A stretch of 64,000 nucleotides of DNA from a virus. The DNA lies in the IMG/VR virus record IMGVR_UViG_3300044946_000078, positions 1-64,000 of that record, one strand, 5' to 3'. Positions 4,923 through 10,076 of the stretch are shown here, in pieces (within the stretch, counting starts at the first letter, position 1; every line of letters starts with the position of its first letter). The notes below the pieces were generated by a model that did no database searches, was not told the DNA's origin, and saw only the letters and a program-made list of their open reading frames with translations. The position numbers and the translations under genes are program-made.

Positions 4923-5010
4923 TTTCACCAACGGTTAGCAGGTTTTATTTAGGGTACAGCAATACAGCCCTGGGCATTTACTCGGGGCTCTCTTTTTTAA
5001 AATCACAACA

Positions 5011-5229
5011 ATGGCTTTTTCTAATAAACAGAGGGACGCACTCATTGCTGAACGAGGACAACCAAAATTACGTTTAGAGTTTGATGTGTTTGAGGATGAA
5101 CGAGTATCTATGTGGACACATTTCGATCATAGTGATGATTTCGGGGCAGTTAAAAACCGCCTTGAAGCAATAAGAGATCATTTAAACGAGTTCTTGCGTG
5201 ATGAAAATATGTGCCCGTTTCACAAATAA
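5011..5229 (+). CDS. hypothetical protein
   Basis: ORF with A-rich leader after the divergent promoter. Confidence 0.65.
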   Translation: MAFSNKQRDALIAERGQPKLRLEFDVFEDERVSMWTHFDHSDDFGAVKNRLEAIRDHLNEFLRDENMCPFHK

Positions 5230-5490
5230 TTGTTGACTATAGATTTTATAATGATGACAAGTAGAGAATATAGATATCGTATGGCCGCAAATTTAACTCG
5301 ATTATTGGATCAACAATGGAGAGAGAGATCGGATTTAATGATTAGAAAAATTTTTGAATCTTTCGCTCAATATAACGCGGCTGCAACAAAAGTGGAAATG
5401 ATCGACGGGCATATCCATGTATCTATCGTTTCGCCACTGGATGTTGATCCACATGATCCGACAATTATTTATCACAGTTGTTCCGAATAA
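5230..5490 (+). CDS. hypothetical protein
   Basis: ORF; start uncertain. Confidence 0.45.
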   Translation: MLTIDFIMMTSREYRYRMAANLTRLLDQQWRERSDLMIRKIFESFAQYNAAATKVEMIDGHIHVSIVSPLDVDPHDPTIIYHSCSE

Positions 5491-5601
5491 ATTCATAAAT
5501 TCGTATCAAGGCCGTGAGCAATTCAGCCCGGCTAAAAACAAAGGCAACTATACCCATTTACACACAGGCATAATTAATTGAAAATGTGGTAGTTGTTGGA
5601 T

Positions 5602-5757
5602 TTAAGGCTTCTTTTCGTCCTTTTTGGTATCCGCGTGCTTTGCGGCGGCTTTCATTACATCAAAAAATGAACCAGTAACCCCTAGTTTGGAATCGTAGTT
5701 TTCCTTTCTGGGCTTCTTTGCTGGTTCTTTTTCTTTGGGGGCTTTAGCCTTCTTCAT
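5602..5757 (-). CDS. small Lys-rich protein (51 aa), tIS passenger
   Basis: Manually translated MKKAKAPKEKEPAKKPRKENYDSKLGVTGSFFDVMKAAAK...; below the ORF-track cutoff. Confidence 0.6.
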   Translation of the reverse strand: MKKAKAPKEKEPAKKPRKENYDSKLGVTGSFFDVMKAAAKHADTKKDEKKP

Positions 5758-5787
5758 GCTATGAAGTTACAATTTTGGAGCGGGATT

Positions 5788-6066
5788 CTATCGCTTTTTC
5801 TTAGCCCTCTTATCAGCTTCGCATTGATTGTAAACAAGGTCAATTACTACCTTGTCATCTACTCCCAATAAGGCCGCGATCCTAAAGGCGTCTTTGAAGG
5901 TGAACCCTTCCGGATTGTCCAGGAGCTTGGATAATGTTTGATGGTGCATACCCAAGTCTTTCGCTAAGACGGTCTTTGGCAAAGTATCGGTAATCTCACG
6001 AAAAGTTTTGATAAACCCGGCTGAGATTAGATTTTTCACCGTTCCGTATCGCTTATCCTTTGACAT
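5788..6066 (-). CDS. Xre/Cro-like HTH regulator, tIS passenger
   Basis: KTVLAKDLGMHHQTLSKLLDNP...DAFRIAALLGV. Confidence 0.8.
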   Translation of the reverse strand: MSKDKRYGTVKNLISAGFIKTFREITDTLPKTVLAKDLGMHHQTLSKLLDNPEGFTFKDAFRIAALLGVDDKVVIDLVYNQCEADKRAKKKR

Positions 6067-6137
6067 TCAGCAAAGAAAAGGGCAAAGTCTTATACAGACG
6101 TATATTAGGTCATACAATTACGGTAATTCCATCTAAT

Positions 6138-6158
6138 TCTGACGTTCATTACGTCAGA
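6138..6158. promoter_or_regulatory. putative operator, TCTGACGT-N5-ACGTCAGA
   Basis: Perfect 8-bp inverted repeat between divergent genes; extra GACGTA half-sites near 6097 and 6163. Confidence 0.55.
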
Positions 6159-6201
6159 TATTGACGTATTCCGGGAAGTATTGCTATATTGGGTGCCATA
6201 A

Positions 6202-6507
6202 ATGGGTGCTATCCCCCGCCGACGCCATATGACACCAATGCTAAGAACCAAAGTCGATATAGTCGATTGCTTTATCGCTGGTGACCCTATCGTTTATGAG
6301 CTTGTTATCTGGGATTACTACGACTATGTTCTATCCTACGTGAATGAATACGTAAAGGACAAGAAAGCGGCCTTTATTATTGTGGGGCTTGTATTCGCCC
6401 AATTGTGGGCACGGCGCAAGACCCTACACCGAGGTACATCTATGCTCGCCCATATCAACCAACAAATAGATAAAACACTAGGACCCAAGACCAACCTTTT
6501 TTATTAG
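6202..6507 (+). CDS. ECF sigma-70 region-2-like protein lacking region 4, tIS passenger
   Basis: AGDPIVYE...YYDYVLSYVNEYVKDKKAAFIIVGLVFAQLWARRKTL resembles the N-terminal half of Bacteroidota ECF sigma factors. Confidence 0.6.
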   Translation: MGAIPRRRHMTPMLRTKVDIVDCFIAGDPIVYELVIWDYYDYVLSYVNEYVKDKKAAFIIVGLVFAQLWARRKTLHRGTSMLAHINQQIDKTLGPKTNLFY

Positions 6508-6531
6508 AAGTCAAGGTTTATTCATTGATTC

Positions 6532-6559
6532 GGGGAGGGTTTCTACCTTCCCCTTTTTT
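6532..6559 (+). terminator. intrinsic terminator
   Basis: GGGGAGG-GTTTCTAC-CTTCCCC followed by a T tract. Confidence 0.75.
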
Positions 6560-6568
6560 ATATGCGAA

Positions 6569-7087
6569 TCAAAAGATATCCTTCACCAATGAAGTCCCCT
6601 CAAGGCTTACTAAATATTCTATTGCTTTTTTAAGCCTTTGTGGTATATTATCACGTAGAACATCCACATCATAGAAATACATTGAATGAAATCCGGTATA
6701 AGAAAAGCCGTGTATTGTAGCTTTAGTAGCCCCATCTAAAACATATTCGCAAGAATCCGAATAATTGAAATAAAGTGTTATGGTCAAACACGGGAATATA
6801 TATCTAGTCTCGGCTGTATTATAATCAATTGAAAGATCAACCTTTTGGACTTTTGCCAGATTAAGGTGATGTTCTTTGTAATTTGTCATGGACTGTGTTG
6901 TTCCGTTATCCGTATGGACAAGATAACCGTCTTGGAAAAAATAGCTATCACTAATGTCTAAATAAGGATGATGGCTAAATTTATCTAAGTAGAATTCTAT
7001 CCATTTTTCGGTATCCGATTTTGTTTGTCCAAAAGAAGTAGAAATAAAGAAGAAAGACATAAGGAATGCCAAATTGAACGCTTTCAT
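6569..7087 (-). CDS. secreted hypothetical protein, tIS passenger
   Basis: Sec signal peptide MKAFNLAFLMSFFFISTSFG followed by Q, typical of Bacteroidota. Confidence 0.75.
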   Translation of the reverse strand: MKAFNLAFLMSFFFISTSFGQTKSDTEKWIEFYLDKFSHHPYLDISDSYFFQDGYLVHTDNGTTQSMTNYKEHHLNLAKVQKVDLSIDYNTAETRYIFPCLTITLYFNYSDSCEYVLDGATKATIHGFSYTGFHSMYFYDVDVLRDNIPQRLKKAIEYLVSLEGTSLVKDIF

Positions 7088-7119
7088 TTTAAAGAGCCTA
7101 AATACCTTAGTCCCCTTAA

Positions 7120-7310
7120 GGTGGTATGCAAAAAAATAGCGTGGGACATTATAGCTCTACCGTAACGAGGTACTGGCATACCCTTCAACCAATAGAACAA
7201 ATAAGCCCACGCCGTAGCGTGAGCGTCCTTTGCCCTCTATCTTGGTTGAATTGAAAAGTGCCAGTTTTCGTTACAAGATCGAAGCTAAAAACGCGCTAAA
7301 TATGTTATGT
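7120..7310 (-). ncRNA. putative structured RNA leader upstream of the secreted-protein gene
   Basis: Nested complementary segments 7162-7169/7267-7274, 7171-7179/7258-7266 and 7184-7192/7242-7250; apical hairpin 7205-7224; U tract at 7130-7136. Confidence 0.65.
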
Positions 7311-7315
7311 CGTGG

Positions 7316-7347
7316 CGAATGTAATTATCCGCTTACGAATCACCAAA
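7316..7347 (-). promoter_or_regulatory. sigma-A promoter driving the structured leader
   Basis: TTTG(7347-7344)-N20-TACATTCG(7323-7316). Confidence 0.7.
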
Positions 7348-7616
7348 GCCTTTTTTATTGTGCAACGCCCCTGGGAAAGAATGTTCTTTCTTTTTTTTGG
7401 ATATTAATTCTACATGCACTTATTTTGTAGCAGTAAAACGGAGGTAAAAAAGAAAGCTGGGTGTCCGCCCAGCTCCTAAATAGAAAAATAAAGTCGGTAA
7501 ACTTAGGGGGTCCACCTAGAAATTCTTTGACCAGCAAGTCATCGAAAAACACCGTAAAATCGGTGGGGGACTCTCTTTTTCCTAACACAAATATAGGGCG
7601 ATGCCCACTAATAACA

Positions 7617-8132
7617 ATGAGTTCCAAGGAAAAAATATTACGAAACATTATCGACCAAATCAGAGAGTGTGAATCTAAGCTCACCCAGCTTAGGAATGCG
7701 CATAGCGCAATGAAGGATCTTCCTGACTATATATTTGAAAGTCAAGGCTCTCAGGGTTCTTTATTTACTAACACGATAATAGATATACCGGTTGAACAAG
7801 AAAGTGTGGAAATTGATCAAAGCCATGGTAGAAATAAGAGGTTGATTTTTAATATTTTAGATGAAAGCAATAAGTCTATAACCCGGAATGAAATTGAAGA
7901 AAGATTCAGAGAAATGATTAAAAGCGATCGAGATGAAAAGAAAACGGTCAATAACGCTCTGTCTGCCTTGGTAAAAGATGGTGACGTAAAAGGCTACAGG
8001 CCCAAAGATATTCCAATTAGGGGCAAATTCTGGAGTCTTTCTCGTTGGTGGTCAGGAGAATATATAAAACAACAGCATAAACCAGACCCAAACGACTACT
8101 TAAATGTAGAAGACGACGAAGAAGACGATTAA
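7617..8132 (+). CDS. coiled-coil plus putative winged-helix protein, tIS passenger
   Basis: Likely start MSSKEK; LIFNILDESNKSITRNEIEERF...TVNNALSALVKDGDV is wHTH-like; acidic tail. Confidence 0.65.
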   Translation: MSSKEKILRNIIDQIRECESKLTQLRNAHSAMKDLPDYIFESQGSQGSLFTNTIIDIPVEQESVEIDQSHGRNKRLIFNILDESNKSITRNEIEERFREMIKSDRDEKKTVNNALSALVKDGDVKGYRPKDIPIRGKFWSLSRWWSGEYIKQQHKPDPNDYLNVEDDEEDD

Positions 8133-8299
8133 AAAAGCTAAAGGGCCAAATGTATGGCCCTTGTTCCCAGCATGCTGATCTCATTAGTCGGCAAAAAAAG
8201 AAAGGATTAGCACTCGTCAATATATGCGGTGTGAGTCCAGGACTCAGGGAAAATCACCAGTCCCATTAGCTGGAAATGATAAAGCCCCTTCTTTCTTTC

Positions 8300-8335
8300 A
8301 AACCCTCGCTATTAACGGTAGCGGGGGTTTGTTTT
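8300..8335. terminator. hairpin terminator between the convergent passenger gene and transposase
   Basis: AAACCCTCGCTA-N7-TAGCGGGGGTTT followed by GTTTT. Confidence 0.7.
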
Positions 8336-8346
8336 ATAAAGATACG

Positions 8347-9306
8347 TCATTTTGTGACGTTTTTTGCGCCTGTCAGTTCCTTGTAAGTAAGGCGGCTATT
8401 AGCGCAACGTTCTACAGCCTTCTGGAATCTTTGGATATTAGAGTAGTCCCGCTTGTTGTACCTATCGGAAAACTCGTCCGCGTACCGTTGTAAATGCTGG
8501 GGCGAAACTGCGTGGTGTGTACCGGATAACCCCCTCTTAAATAGGCTCCAAAAGTTTTCTATCCCGTTGGTACTGAATGCTCCATTTACGTATTGGCCAT
8601 CCAGATGATTTACCGTTATATGGAAATAGTCATTTTTGAGCGAATTATAGGAGGCCCAGGTATCTGTTACCATAATACTGGACTTCTCGATCCACCCTTC
8701 GACAATAGGTATTAAGGTTTCGGCTTTAGCATCAGGGACAATCTTTGTCCTTACCTGTCCTCTCAATCCCTGAGCGCCAAATACCATAGTCTTTCCTTTA
8801 GCAGACCGACCGTGGGCATTTTTTATCCTTTTGTCCGCGTGCTTATTTTTCTCCTTTCCACCTATGATGGTTTCATCCAAAACGGCATAGTCTTTTAGCA
8901 AAGCGGGTTCAGTTTCTTTGAGCATATTCCTAAGACGGTGGTTAATAAACCATGCCGTTTTCTGGCTCGTCCCGATCCTGGATGCCAATTCTACGGAGCT
9001 AATACCGTTCTTACAGATGGATATTTCATACGCAGCCTGTAACCACTTCCGGAACTCTACTTTGCTACCTTCAAATATGCTACCAGTCCGCACTGTAAAG
9101 GGCAAGCCACATTCACGATTAGCGCAACGATAAGACGATATATCGGTGAACTTTCCACGGGCCTTTACCTTGTAGAACTTAGCTGATCCACAATGCGGAC
9201 ATACCGGAACACCGCCCCACCTTACTTGTTCAAAGAACTCATAGCAGGTCTTTTCGTCCTTAAAGTAGTCGTTAAATTCGTGGATAGTTTTGAAGGCAAA
9301 GTCCAT
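8347..9306 (-). CDS. IS1595-family (ISXO2-like) DDE transposase
   Basis: Zn ribbon CPHC..C...C, SQKTAW HTH, catalytic LDET / VTD / IENFW. Confidence 0.95.
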   Translation of the reverse strand: MDFAFKTIHEFNDYFKDEKTCYEFFEQVRWGGVPVCPHCGSAKFYKVKARGKFTDISSYRCANRECGLPFTVRTGSIFEGSKVEFRKWLQAAYEISICKNGISSVELASRIGTSQKTAWFINHRLRNMLKETEPALLKDYAVLDETIIGGKEKNKHADKRIKNAHGRSAKGKTMVFGAQGLRGQVRTKIVPDAKAETLIPIVEGWIEKSSIMVTDTWASYNSLKNDYFHITVNHLDGQYVNGAFSTNGIENFWSLFKRGLSGTHHAVSPQHLQRYADEFSDRYNKRDYSNIQRFQKAVERCANSRLTYKELTGAKNVTK

Positions 9307-9325
9307 TTTGTTGTTATTGATACAT

Positions 9326-9357
9326 CAAAGATAACAACTGCGTGTAACATCTCCTAA
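9326..9357 (-). promoter_or_regulatory. transposase promoter
   Basis: TTAG-N20-TATCTTTG. Confidence 0.6.
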
Positions 9358-9435
9358 TATTTTAGACTCTTTTTTTTACTTTTTACCCGGTTTTAATTTG
9401 CGTGTATTTGGGTATACTCGCCAAAACAAAATATC

Positions 9436-9675
9436 ATGAAAAGTTCAGTAAAAATCGATGTCGATTCCGCCAGTCAGCCAATCTTACACGTTCAGGTTTA
9501 CTACAGTGGAACGGATGATGTTCGCGACAAGCTCCTGCAATTATTTATTTCTGCCTCTGTGGACCATGGCCTCTTTCTTGAGGAGGGATTTAAGTCTGAA
9601 GACGGGCCTCAACAGTATATTATTCGCCCCAAAAACCAGGTGAATTTTGTTGAGCCAGACGCAGAAGCAGCCTAA
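9436..9675 (+). CDS. hypothetical protein (leader interrupted by the tIS)
   Basis: ATG lies 5 bp after the right TSD. Confidence 0.65.
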   Translation: MKSSVKIDVDSASQPILHVQVYYSGTDDVRDKLLQLFISASVDHGLFLEEGFKSEDGPQQYIIRPKNQVNFVEPDAEAA

Positions 9676-9701
9676 TTTTACACTCACGTTTTACCCACAT
9701 C

Positions 9702-9744
9702 AAAGGCCCGGCAGATGATTTCTCCCATCTGAACGGGCTTTTTT
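9702..9744 (+). terminator. intrinsic terminator
   Basis: GGCCCG-CAGATG...CATCTG-CGGGCT followed by a T tract. Confidence 0.6.
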
Positions 9745-9824
9745 CATTATCTTAGCTCCAAGTCTCCCACAGTGAGCATTACTACAAACTGCACCAGTAT
9801 TCGGGCGGATAAATCATTTTTTTT

Positions 9825-10076
9825 ATGACAGTAAGACAACTCAAAGACTTCCTGGATCAATTATCAGACGATGCCCAAGTGCTTATCGAAACTGACAAAG
9901 AAGTCTTTATTACTGCTTGCCAAGCTCAATCCGAAATTATAGATTTATGCCTGGATGATATTCCTGACGACGAAGTAAGCGACAGCGATATTCAACCGGC
10001 CCTCGTTCTACGGCCATGCACTTGTCATACCGAAGGCGAAGTAATCCCGCAAATGGACGCCCTGATCATGAATTAA
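9825..10076 (+). CDS. hypothetical acidic protein
   Basis: MTVRQLKDFLDQLSDDAQV, a common phage N-terminal motif. Confidence 0.7.
   Translation: MTVRQLKDFLDQLSDDAQVLIETDKEVFITACQAQSEIIDLCLDDIPDDEVSDSDIQPALVLRPCTCHTEGEVIPQMDALIMN

Follow-up and report, generated by a model that had tools for sequence, protein, structure and literature searches.

Background

The c4 RNA of phage P1 and the CI RNA of P4 each use two short segments to pair with targets further downstream in the leader, and this pairing causes premature termination of transcription. Outside the gut genus Bacteroides, little is known about the regulatory RNAs of Bacteroidota. An earlier note, made from the sequence alone, drew attention to a structured leader in a stretch of viral DNA, here called the window (64,000 nucleotides, i.e. 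positions 1 to 64,000 of IMG/VR virus record IMGVR_UViG_3300044946_000078, a linear virus record of 75.6 kb), and read it as an attenuator or antisense switch analogous to these phage RNAs. The attenuator half of that reading agrees with our analysis, in which four segments (S1 to S4) show the 1:2, 2:3 and 3:4 pairing layout of an attenuator; the antisense half does not, as there is no conserved antisense promoter. Likewise, there is no indication of a processed, trans-acting RNA of the c4/CI type; the second of the two proposed box pairs is not conserved, and the architecture is nearer to that of a four-segment attenuator. We consider it reasonably probable that the stretch is the 5' leader of a gene for a small secreted protein, that it belongs to a conserved two-state family of Bacteroidota leaders, and that it works as an attenuator by refolding of S1 to S4.

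Results and discussion

The leader and its genomic setting

The leader is encoded on the minus strand, within the 530-nt gap that separates two divergent genes (7087-6569 and, on the plus strand, 7617-8132). The features to which we refer below are the following.

5543-9422: IS1595-type passenger transposon, carrying the leader and its gene
7344-7347, minus strand: -33-like element TTTG, read from the sequence, 20 nt upstream of the -7-like box
7316-7323, minus strand: -7-like box TACATTCG, one mismatch to TAnnTTTG
7128-7298, minus strand: family RNA, spanning P1 through the U tract; match to covariance model R1 with 136 bits and E about 6e-29
7267-7298, minus strand: segment S1, with the 5' strands of helices P1 (UAGCG, 7298-7294), P1b (7287-7282) and P2 (7274-7268)
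7259-7265, minus strand: 5' strand of helix P3, ACUGGCA, which in the folded two-hairpin state is the loop of hairpin H1
7217-7250, minus strand: segment S2, with the 5' strands of P4 (7250-7229) and P5 (GCUCACGC, 7224-7217)
7184-7213, minus strand: segment S3, with the 3' strands of P5 (GGCGUGGGC, 7213-7205) and P4 (7201-7184); also the 5' arm of hairpin H2
7168-7183, minus strand: tip of H2, GGGUAU-GCCA-GUACCU, in the rod the 3' strand of P3 (7178-7172) and two internal loops
7138-7167, minus strand: segment S4, made up of the 3' strands of P2 and P1b plus box D (GUCCCACGCU, 7147-7138); it doubles as the 3' arm of H2
7130-7136, minus strand: U7 tract directly 3' of H2 and P1, an intrinsic-terminator tail
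7104-7122, minus strand: downstream hairpin H3 (ACCUUA/UAAGGU), the loop of which (GGGAC, 7114-7110) complements GUCCC of box D
6569-7087, minus strand: downstream gene for a 172-aa protein (ORF172) of no known family, with a signal-peptide-like N-terminus

The stretch 5543-9422 is recognized as an IS1595-type transposon by the combination of its terminal inverted repeats (19 of 24 positions agree), an 8-bp target duplication without mismatch, AAAACAAA, that bounds it at 5535-5542 and 9423-9430, and an intact transposase (9306-8347) that matches DDE_Tnp_IS1595 with E = 2e-39. The copy in the window thus lies within mobile DNA, as had been proposed, and the transposases closest to that of the window come from Sediminibacterium and other Bacteroidia. 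At the DNA level, the similarity to the closest IS1595 relatives is limited to the transposase and the terminal repeat, and a comparison of the leader region with a phage collection gave no DNA match. The ATG of ORF172 lies 40 nt past the end of the covariance-model match. For this protein and for the product of the divergent plus-strand gene a word-index protein search returned zero relatives, and in a protein atlas ORF172 fell in unnamed Bacteroidota clusters only.

Within the phage genome, the cargo of the transposon consists of the leader and its gene, a gene for an Xre-like HTH protein and two unknown ORFs. Three further terminator-like structures are found nearby. A strong hairpin followed by a U tract (7453-7476, minus strand) lies in the same intergenic gap, upstream of the leader promoter, and is accompanied by a promoter-like site (7617-7590); it could belong to a separate small RNA of about 130 nt or be the point where antisense transcription across the plus-strand gene stops. 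A strong two-way terminator hairpin (8299-8331) separates the transposase from that same gene, and another strong terminator hairpin (6532-6553) follows a 101-aa ORF, where the match to the FopS sRNA model is weak and at chance level (E = 9.6).

The rod

The long rod with a UACG-capped hairpin that the earlier note had described reappeared at the same place in an independent fold, with helices 7287-7282/7157-7152, 7274-7268/7168-7162, 7265-7259/7178-7172 and 7250-7243/7191-7184, and a cap helix 7224-7217/7212-7205 around the loop UACG (7216-7213). The minimum free energy of the stretch 7320-7088 is -72.8 kcal/mol, against a mean of -54.1 for shuffled sequences (z = -3.99; none of 200 shuffles did equally well). 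This value compares with -62.4 kcal/mol for the two-hairpin state that is described below. A scan of the window with R1 found a single copy.

A widespread family without an Rfam entry

A DNA search of 401 genomes, taken from the order of the closest transposases, yielded a cluster of matches of 70-83% that fall exactly on the rod. Ten sequences adopt the same rod, and in nine of the ten the given (sense) strand is more stable than the opposite one. The covariance model R1 was built in this analysis and then run on three genome samples. It matched 23 of the 151 genomes sampled from the order, 54 of the 151 from the family to which the closest host-like genome belongs (up to 17 copies in one genome) and 26 of the 151 in a phylum-wide sample. 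Among the named genomes with a match are a Salibacteraceae MAG, a Flagellimonas sp., a Flavipsychrobacter MAG and a Cytophagales MAG; Spirosoma luteum has no R1 match. R1 also matched three further viral contigs, reached by a gapped-pattern scan of such contigs (three of the 80 fetched loci were true members, the rest being mostly chance matches), and an exact 20-nt pattern for the cap hairpin gave one match, by chance, in an unrelated phage of high G+C content.

The anticipated absence from Rfam was borne out by the scan that had been proposed: cmscan with Rfam 15 returned nothing on the element (window 5000-10000, E up to 10), and 22 other members had no family match in Rfam 15 either (E up to 1). 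Literature searches by sequence string and by keyword found no description of the leader motif. The leader therefore represents a widespread, uncatalogued family of Bacteroidota leader RNAs. Two catalogued or otherwise familiar types of structured RNA were tried and rejected, namely 6S RNA, because the Rfam 6S models do not match and the element is patchy, with 0 to 17 copies rather than a single housekeeping copy, and retron msd RNA, because no reverse transcriptase is found nearby.

Several variants deserve separate mention. In three IMG/VR viral contigs (L138:217-430, L190:4245-4459 and L204:1946-2159) the leader is 214 nt long and has an extra hairpin of about 50 nt in the P5 cap. A divergent subfamily (L123, L124 and L132) has neither box D nor the usual U tract; its members end in GAUUGAUUAC, with CCCUUUUU further on, and may use a different terminator. 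One genome, G484 (loci L280-L296), contains seventeen diverged copies in 4.5 Mb, among which at least four distinct matched variants of the GCGUGGG/CCCACGC helix occur; several of its leaders precede ~270-aa HEPN-domain paralogues and several others ~400-aa paralogues of no known family. Finally, leaders lie within 5 kb of IS1595 transposases in a Salibacteraceae, a Sangeribacter and a Cytophagales MAG (L009:2698-6057, L017:4943-8990 and L012:5001-7607, respectively); a terminal-repeat-like pair surrounds leader and transposase in L009, and in L119 an IS1595 transposase is found at 100 nt from the leader. The module of leader plus gene thus seems to be a recurrent passenger of IS1595 transposons.

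Compensatory changes preserve the rod

Covariation among homologs had been named as a check, and it proved strong, both for the rod pairs and for the first of the two alternative pairings. In an alignment of 40 members, the rod is paired in 89.5% of its cells; shuffles reach 63.4%, and sliding the partners gives 36-44%. Changes on both sides occur at all 43 rod pairs. Since the rod model guided the alignments, these counts lean in favour of the rod. Helix P2 is paired in 93.7% of the cells, with changes on both sides at 10 of 10 pairs. P3 (ACUGGCA/UGCCAGU) is the most conserved helix of the rod (99.6% paired) and still shows changes on both sides at each of its seven pairs, while the sequences of P2 and P4 are essentially free.

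A second fold that excludes the first

The alternative pairings that the earlier note had seen in the leader are present in the window; what it had missed is the refolding of the entire 3' half into a second hairpin. Two 7-mers within the rod had been pointed out, each with a perfect complement downstream. The first (GCGUGGG 7212-7206, with CCCACGC 7145-7139) is conserved, covaries in the family and forms the base of the terminator hairpin. The second (GGUAUGC 7182-7176, with GCAUACC 7129-7123) is present in the window as described, but it is not conserved: such a complement occurs in 5 of 79 members (controls, 3.7%), so that the pairing is peculiar to the window and a few relatives. The U7 tract at 7136-7130 is indeed flanked by the downstream complements of both.

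Box D and the 3' strand of P5 are paired in 96.1% of the cells over 79 distinct members. Both sides change at all seven pairs, giving 19 both-side-changed cells against 3.2 +/- 1.6 in shuffles, with matched variants such as GUGAG/CUCAC, GCGGG/CCGC, GUAGG/CCUAC, GCAGG/CCUGC and ACGGGAG/CUCCCGU. When the 3' half is folded alone, nearly every member forms a complete hairpin, H2, in which the GCGUGGG:CCCACGC base stands directly before the U tract, the 3' strand of P4 pairs with those of P2 and P1b in the middle stem, and the tip is GGGUAU-GCCA-GUACCU. H2 has a median energy of -30 kcal/mol and a median z of -4.1 (94% of the members lie below z = -2). Its counterpart H1, formed by the 5' half alone, has a median energy of -19 kcal/mol and a median z of -1.96, i.e. 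marginally above shuffled stability, and the median for the full rod across members is -61 kcal/mol.

Over the whole of H2, 80.2% of the cells are paired against 72.3% in shuffles, and 226 cells are changed on both sides against 126. The pairs of its tip covary too (columns 219:232 are UA in 37 and CG in 25 members; columns 221:231 are AU in 37 and CG in 8, plus others), and as the tip bases are unpaired in the rod, this covariation is evidence that belongs to the second fold only. The counts for H1 are weaker (73.7% paired against 69.0% in shuffles). A test with chimeras, in which segments of different members were combined, revealed member-specific complementarity for S1:S4, S2:S3, S1:S2 and S3:S4, and none for S1:S3 and S2:S4; native S2:S3 duplexes, for example, average -15.7 kcal/mol against -7.8 for the chimeras. 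All the conserved bases that lie in 'loops' of the rod lie in stems of the alternative fold, and P3 amounts to a pairing between the two hairpin loops. The family exists, and both of its folds are retained by compensatory changes; the rod, the terminator hairpin and their mutual exclusion are well supported.

Pairings beyond the U tract

Sixteen of the 79 members, which form the clade of the window, carry, in the loop of a third hairpin past the U tract, an exact complement of the GUCCC stretch of box D at 4-63 nt (mostly 12-23) past the end of the RNA, against 2.2 +/- 1.5 in controls. In the window this complement lies in the loop of H3, and elsewhere the H3 loop and box D vary together (GGAAC with GUUCC, GGUAC with GUACC). 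In the fold of the window, the same GGGAC (7114-7110) alternatively closes a hairpin that covers the 8 nt before the ATG, so that pairing of box D with the H3 loop may couple the switch to translation in this clade. In another subfamily, GGCGU past the U tract complements ACGCC of box D, as noted by eye only.

Position of the element with respect to promoter and genes

Bacteroidota promoters consist of a -33 element and a -7 box with the consensus TAnnTTTG, spaced as they are in the window. The promoter claimed at 7347-7316 conforms to this, with TTTG, 20 nt and TACATTCG, one mismatch away from the -7 box, and some relatives have perfect boxes equally far from the RNA. Of the 41 perfect TAnnTTTG boxes that the family has in the 150 nt upstream, 25 have their end 14-30 nt ahead of the first paired base; the -7-like box of the window ends at -18, and the opposite strand has no matching enrichment of TAnnTTTG. 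The transcription start would then lie at about 7312-7308, i.e. some 10-15 nt before 7298. At the other end, 72 of the 79 members have at least five U in the 8 nt after box D, compared with 13% of background windows. A co-oriented ORF starts within 70 nt downstream in 52 of the 79 (median distance 39 nt), six of the 79 loci have no co-oriented ORF nearby, and the upstream neighbour is divergent in 48 of 68 loci. Promoter box, U tract, co-oriented ORF and divergent upstream neighbour together identify the element as a promoter-proximal leader.

The associated genes and the search for a trigger

The 73 proteins encoded downstream fall into 39 Pfam families, of which HEPN (six proteins) and ECF sigma factors (four) are the commonest; the other products include DNA methylases (two), RadC, a TonB-dependent receptor, T9SS-type secreted proteins and many unknowns. 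No pathway or transport function is shared among these 73. In the genome with 17 copies, the leader moves with paralogous downstream genes. The upstream neighbours are equally mixed and comprise HTH proteins, ArdC, HigB, a resolvase, IS1595 transposase and a phage capsid protein.

Three ways in which the leader could be controlled were considered and rejected. A conserved partner protein is at odds with the heterogeneity of the upstream neighbours, with an HTH protein in only 6 of 68 loci. Attenuation through a leader peptide is at odds with leader ORFs that are shorter than those in shuffles, and in 26 of the 79 members there is no ATG at all within the 110 nt that were scanned, which comprise 25 nt ahead of the RNA and its first 85 nt. 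A cis-encoded antisense RNA, finally, would require a promoter on the other strand, and antisense -7 boxes are not enriched across the family. As the two folds between them pair all the conserved bases, no ligand pocket stands out.

A model for the switch and its alternatives

Most likely the leader is a transcription attenuator that turns accessory genes of mobile DNA on and off. Pairing of S1 with S4 and of S2 with S3 would produce the long rod and thereby sequester both arms of the terminator, while pairing of S3 with S4 would produce a strong hairpin (7213-7138) with a G+C-rich base (GGCGUGGG:CCCACGCU) right next to the U7 tract, so that transcription would be halted before the gene; S1 and S2 would then form the weaker hairpin alongside. 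In such a scheme the ACUGGCA/UGCCAGU helix of the rod would be the two hairpin loops paired to each other. We infer that the rod is the antiterminator, or read-through, form and the 3' hairpin the terminating one, and the balance between them would be set by a signal, be it a protein, an RNA or the speed of the polymerase. It should be added that the end helix of the rod itself (UAGCG/CGCUA) adjoins the U tract; termination could occur there as well, which would leave no 'on' state.

In one alternative reading the element is not a leader at all, but a free-standing, trans-acting small RNA of about 180 nt, the 3' hairpin of which merely ends transcription before the RNA relaxes into the rod. 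It would explain why the element has its own promoter and a strong terminator, why the rod exceeds the other fold in stability by about 10 kcal/mol, why the downstream genes are so heterogeneous and why six of the 79 loci have no co-oriented ORF nearby. We nevertheless hold it to be unlikely: with an ORF start at a median of 39 nt there is no space for a promoter of that gene's own, the duplicated copies in G484 accompany paralogous downstream genes, and the elements past the U tract that covary with box D imply that read-through transcripts are under selection. A terminated leader might also act on its own kind, as P4 CI and P1 c4 do, by pairing with nascent leaders and forcing their premature termination. 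The short complementary boxes, the first of which covaries, the variation of P3 among the copies of one genome (which makes copy-specific addressing possible) and the occurrence of members on phages and other mobile DNA would all fit, but intramolecular pairing explains the same covariation, the second box pair is not conserved, the c4 family of Rfam gives no match, no processing signal or stable product is known and most members have non-phage contexts, which together make this self-addressed RNA improbable. A related idea, on which we would place slightly more weight though it stays distinctly doubtful, combines the toggle with such feedback: the leader would be a portable, ligand-free cargo switch, the terminated product of which acts back on nascent copies by kissing of the loops, with P3 as the address of each copy.

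An aptamer for a metabolite or ion could be sought in the conserved internal loops (AA/ACC and AUUUU/GGGUA) on either side of the conserved helix, next to what looks like a terminator-type expression platform; these same 'loop' bases, however, form the covarying tip-hairpin stems of the other fold, and genes as diverse as those for HEPN proteins, ECF sigma factors, DNA methylases, RadC and secreted proteins have no common pathway, so that a riboswitch appears very unlikely. An imperfect palindrome that is patchily distributed, reaches 17 copies per genome and recurs near IS1595 transposases is also what one would expect of a mobile MITE- or ERIC-like repeat with no regulatory role of its own. 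Such a repeat would hardly show a strong orientation bias relative to the next gene, hypervariable but compensated stems with conserved loops, a conserved promoter and U tract, or same-genome copies that are diverged rather than near-identical, and we give this reading next to no credence. The chance that the hairpin acts as DNA, i.e. as the single-strand promoter of a conjugative leading region, an integron attC site or a cruciform origin, seems just as slim. The element is indeed a long hairpin located in mobile DNA, and some of the genes beside it (ArdC, RadC, orphan methylases) are of a sort typically carried in plasmid leading regions. Its G-U pairs, however, belong to the sense strand, and in single-strand promoters and attC sites it is the template or bottom strand that folds; a conserved sense promoter and U tract would have no role in any of these elements, and arrays or a nearby integrase are absent.

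Conclusions

About one in six of the genomes sampled across the phylum, and over a third of those from one family, contain this leader RNA, which is found on phages as well as on IS1595 transposons and yet has no matching Rfam model. As the leader precedes defence-type and other accessory genes, it may be a common control point for the cargo of mobile elements. Clear covariation in both competing folds makes it a good natural model for the evolution of RNA switches, and the family offers a defined target in the search for its signal.

Several known systems share parts of this design. The competition between a rod and local hairpins built from the same strands recalls that between the rod and the metastable multi-hairpin folds of viroids; the leader RNA, in contrast, is linear, chromosomally encoded, about 170 nt long and not a replicon. 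With the expression platforms of riboswitches it has in common mutually exclusive terminator and antiterminator folds past a promoter, both with covariation, which is rarely so clear, but there is no separate aptamer domain and no coherent set of genes. P1 c4 and P4 CI resemble it in their short segments complementary to downstream sites on the same transcript, in the link to premature termination and in their residence on phages or mobile DNA; they differ in that the leader has no match to the c4 family of Rfam, that only one of its two box pairs is conserved and that its pairing is explained within one molecule. The kissing-loop feedback considered above would be akin to P4 CI as well, and would differ by the toggle between rod and two hairpins and by an autoregulation that is made of RNA only and addressed by sequence. 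The trp operon leader and the repC leader of pT181 share with our leader the promoter-proximal position, the 1:2, 2:3 and 3:4 pairings and a 3:4 terminator with a U tract that is excluded by 2:3. The present leader has neither a leader peptide nor a countertranscript promoter and would regulate unrelated cargo genes; its hairpin loops, moreover, are complementary to each other and it has a 1:4 pairing in addition, which makes its presumed antiterminated form one continuous rod of about 60 bp.
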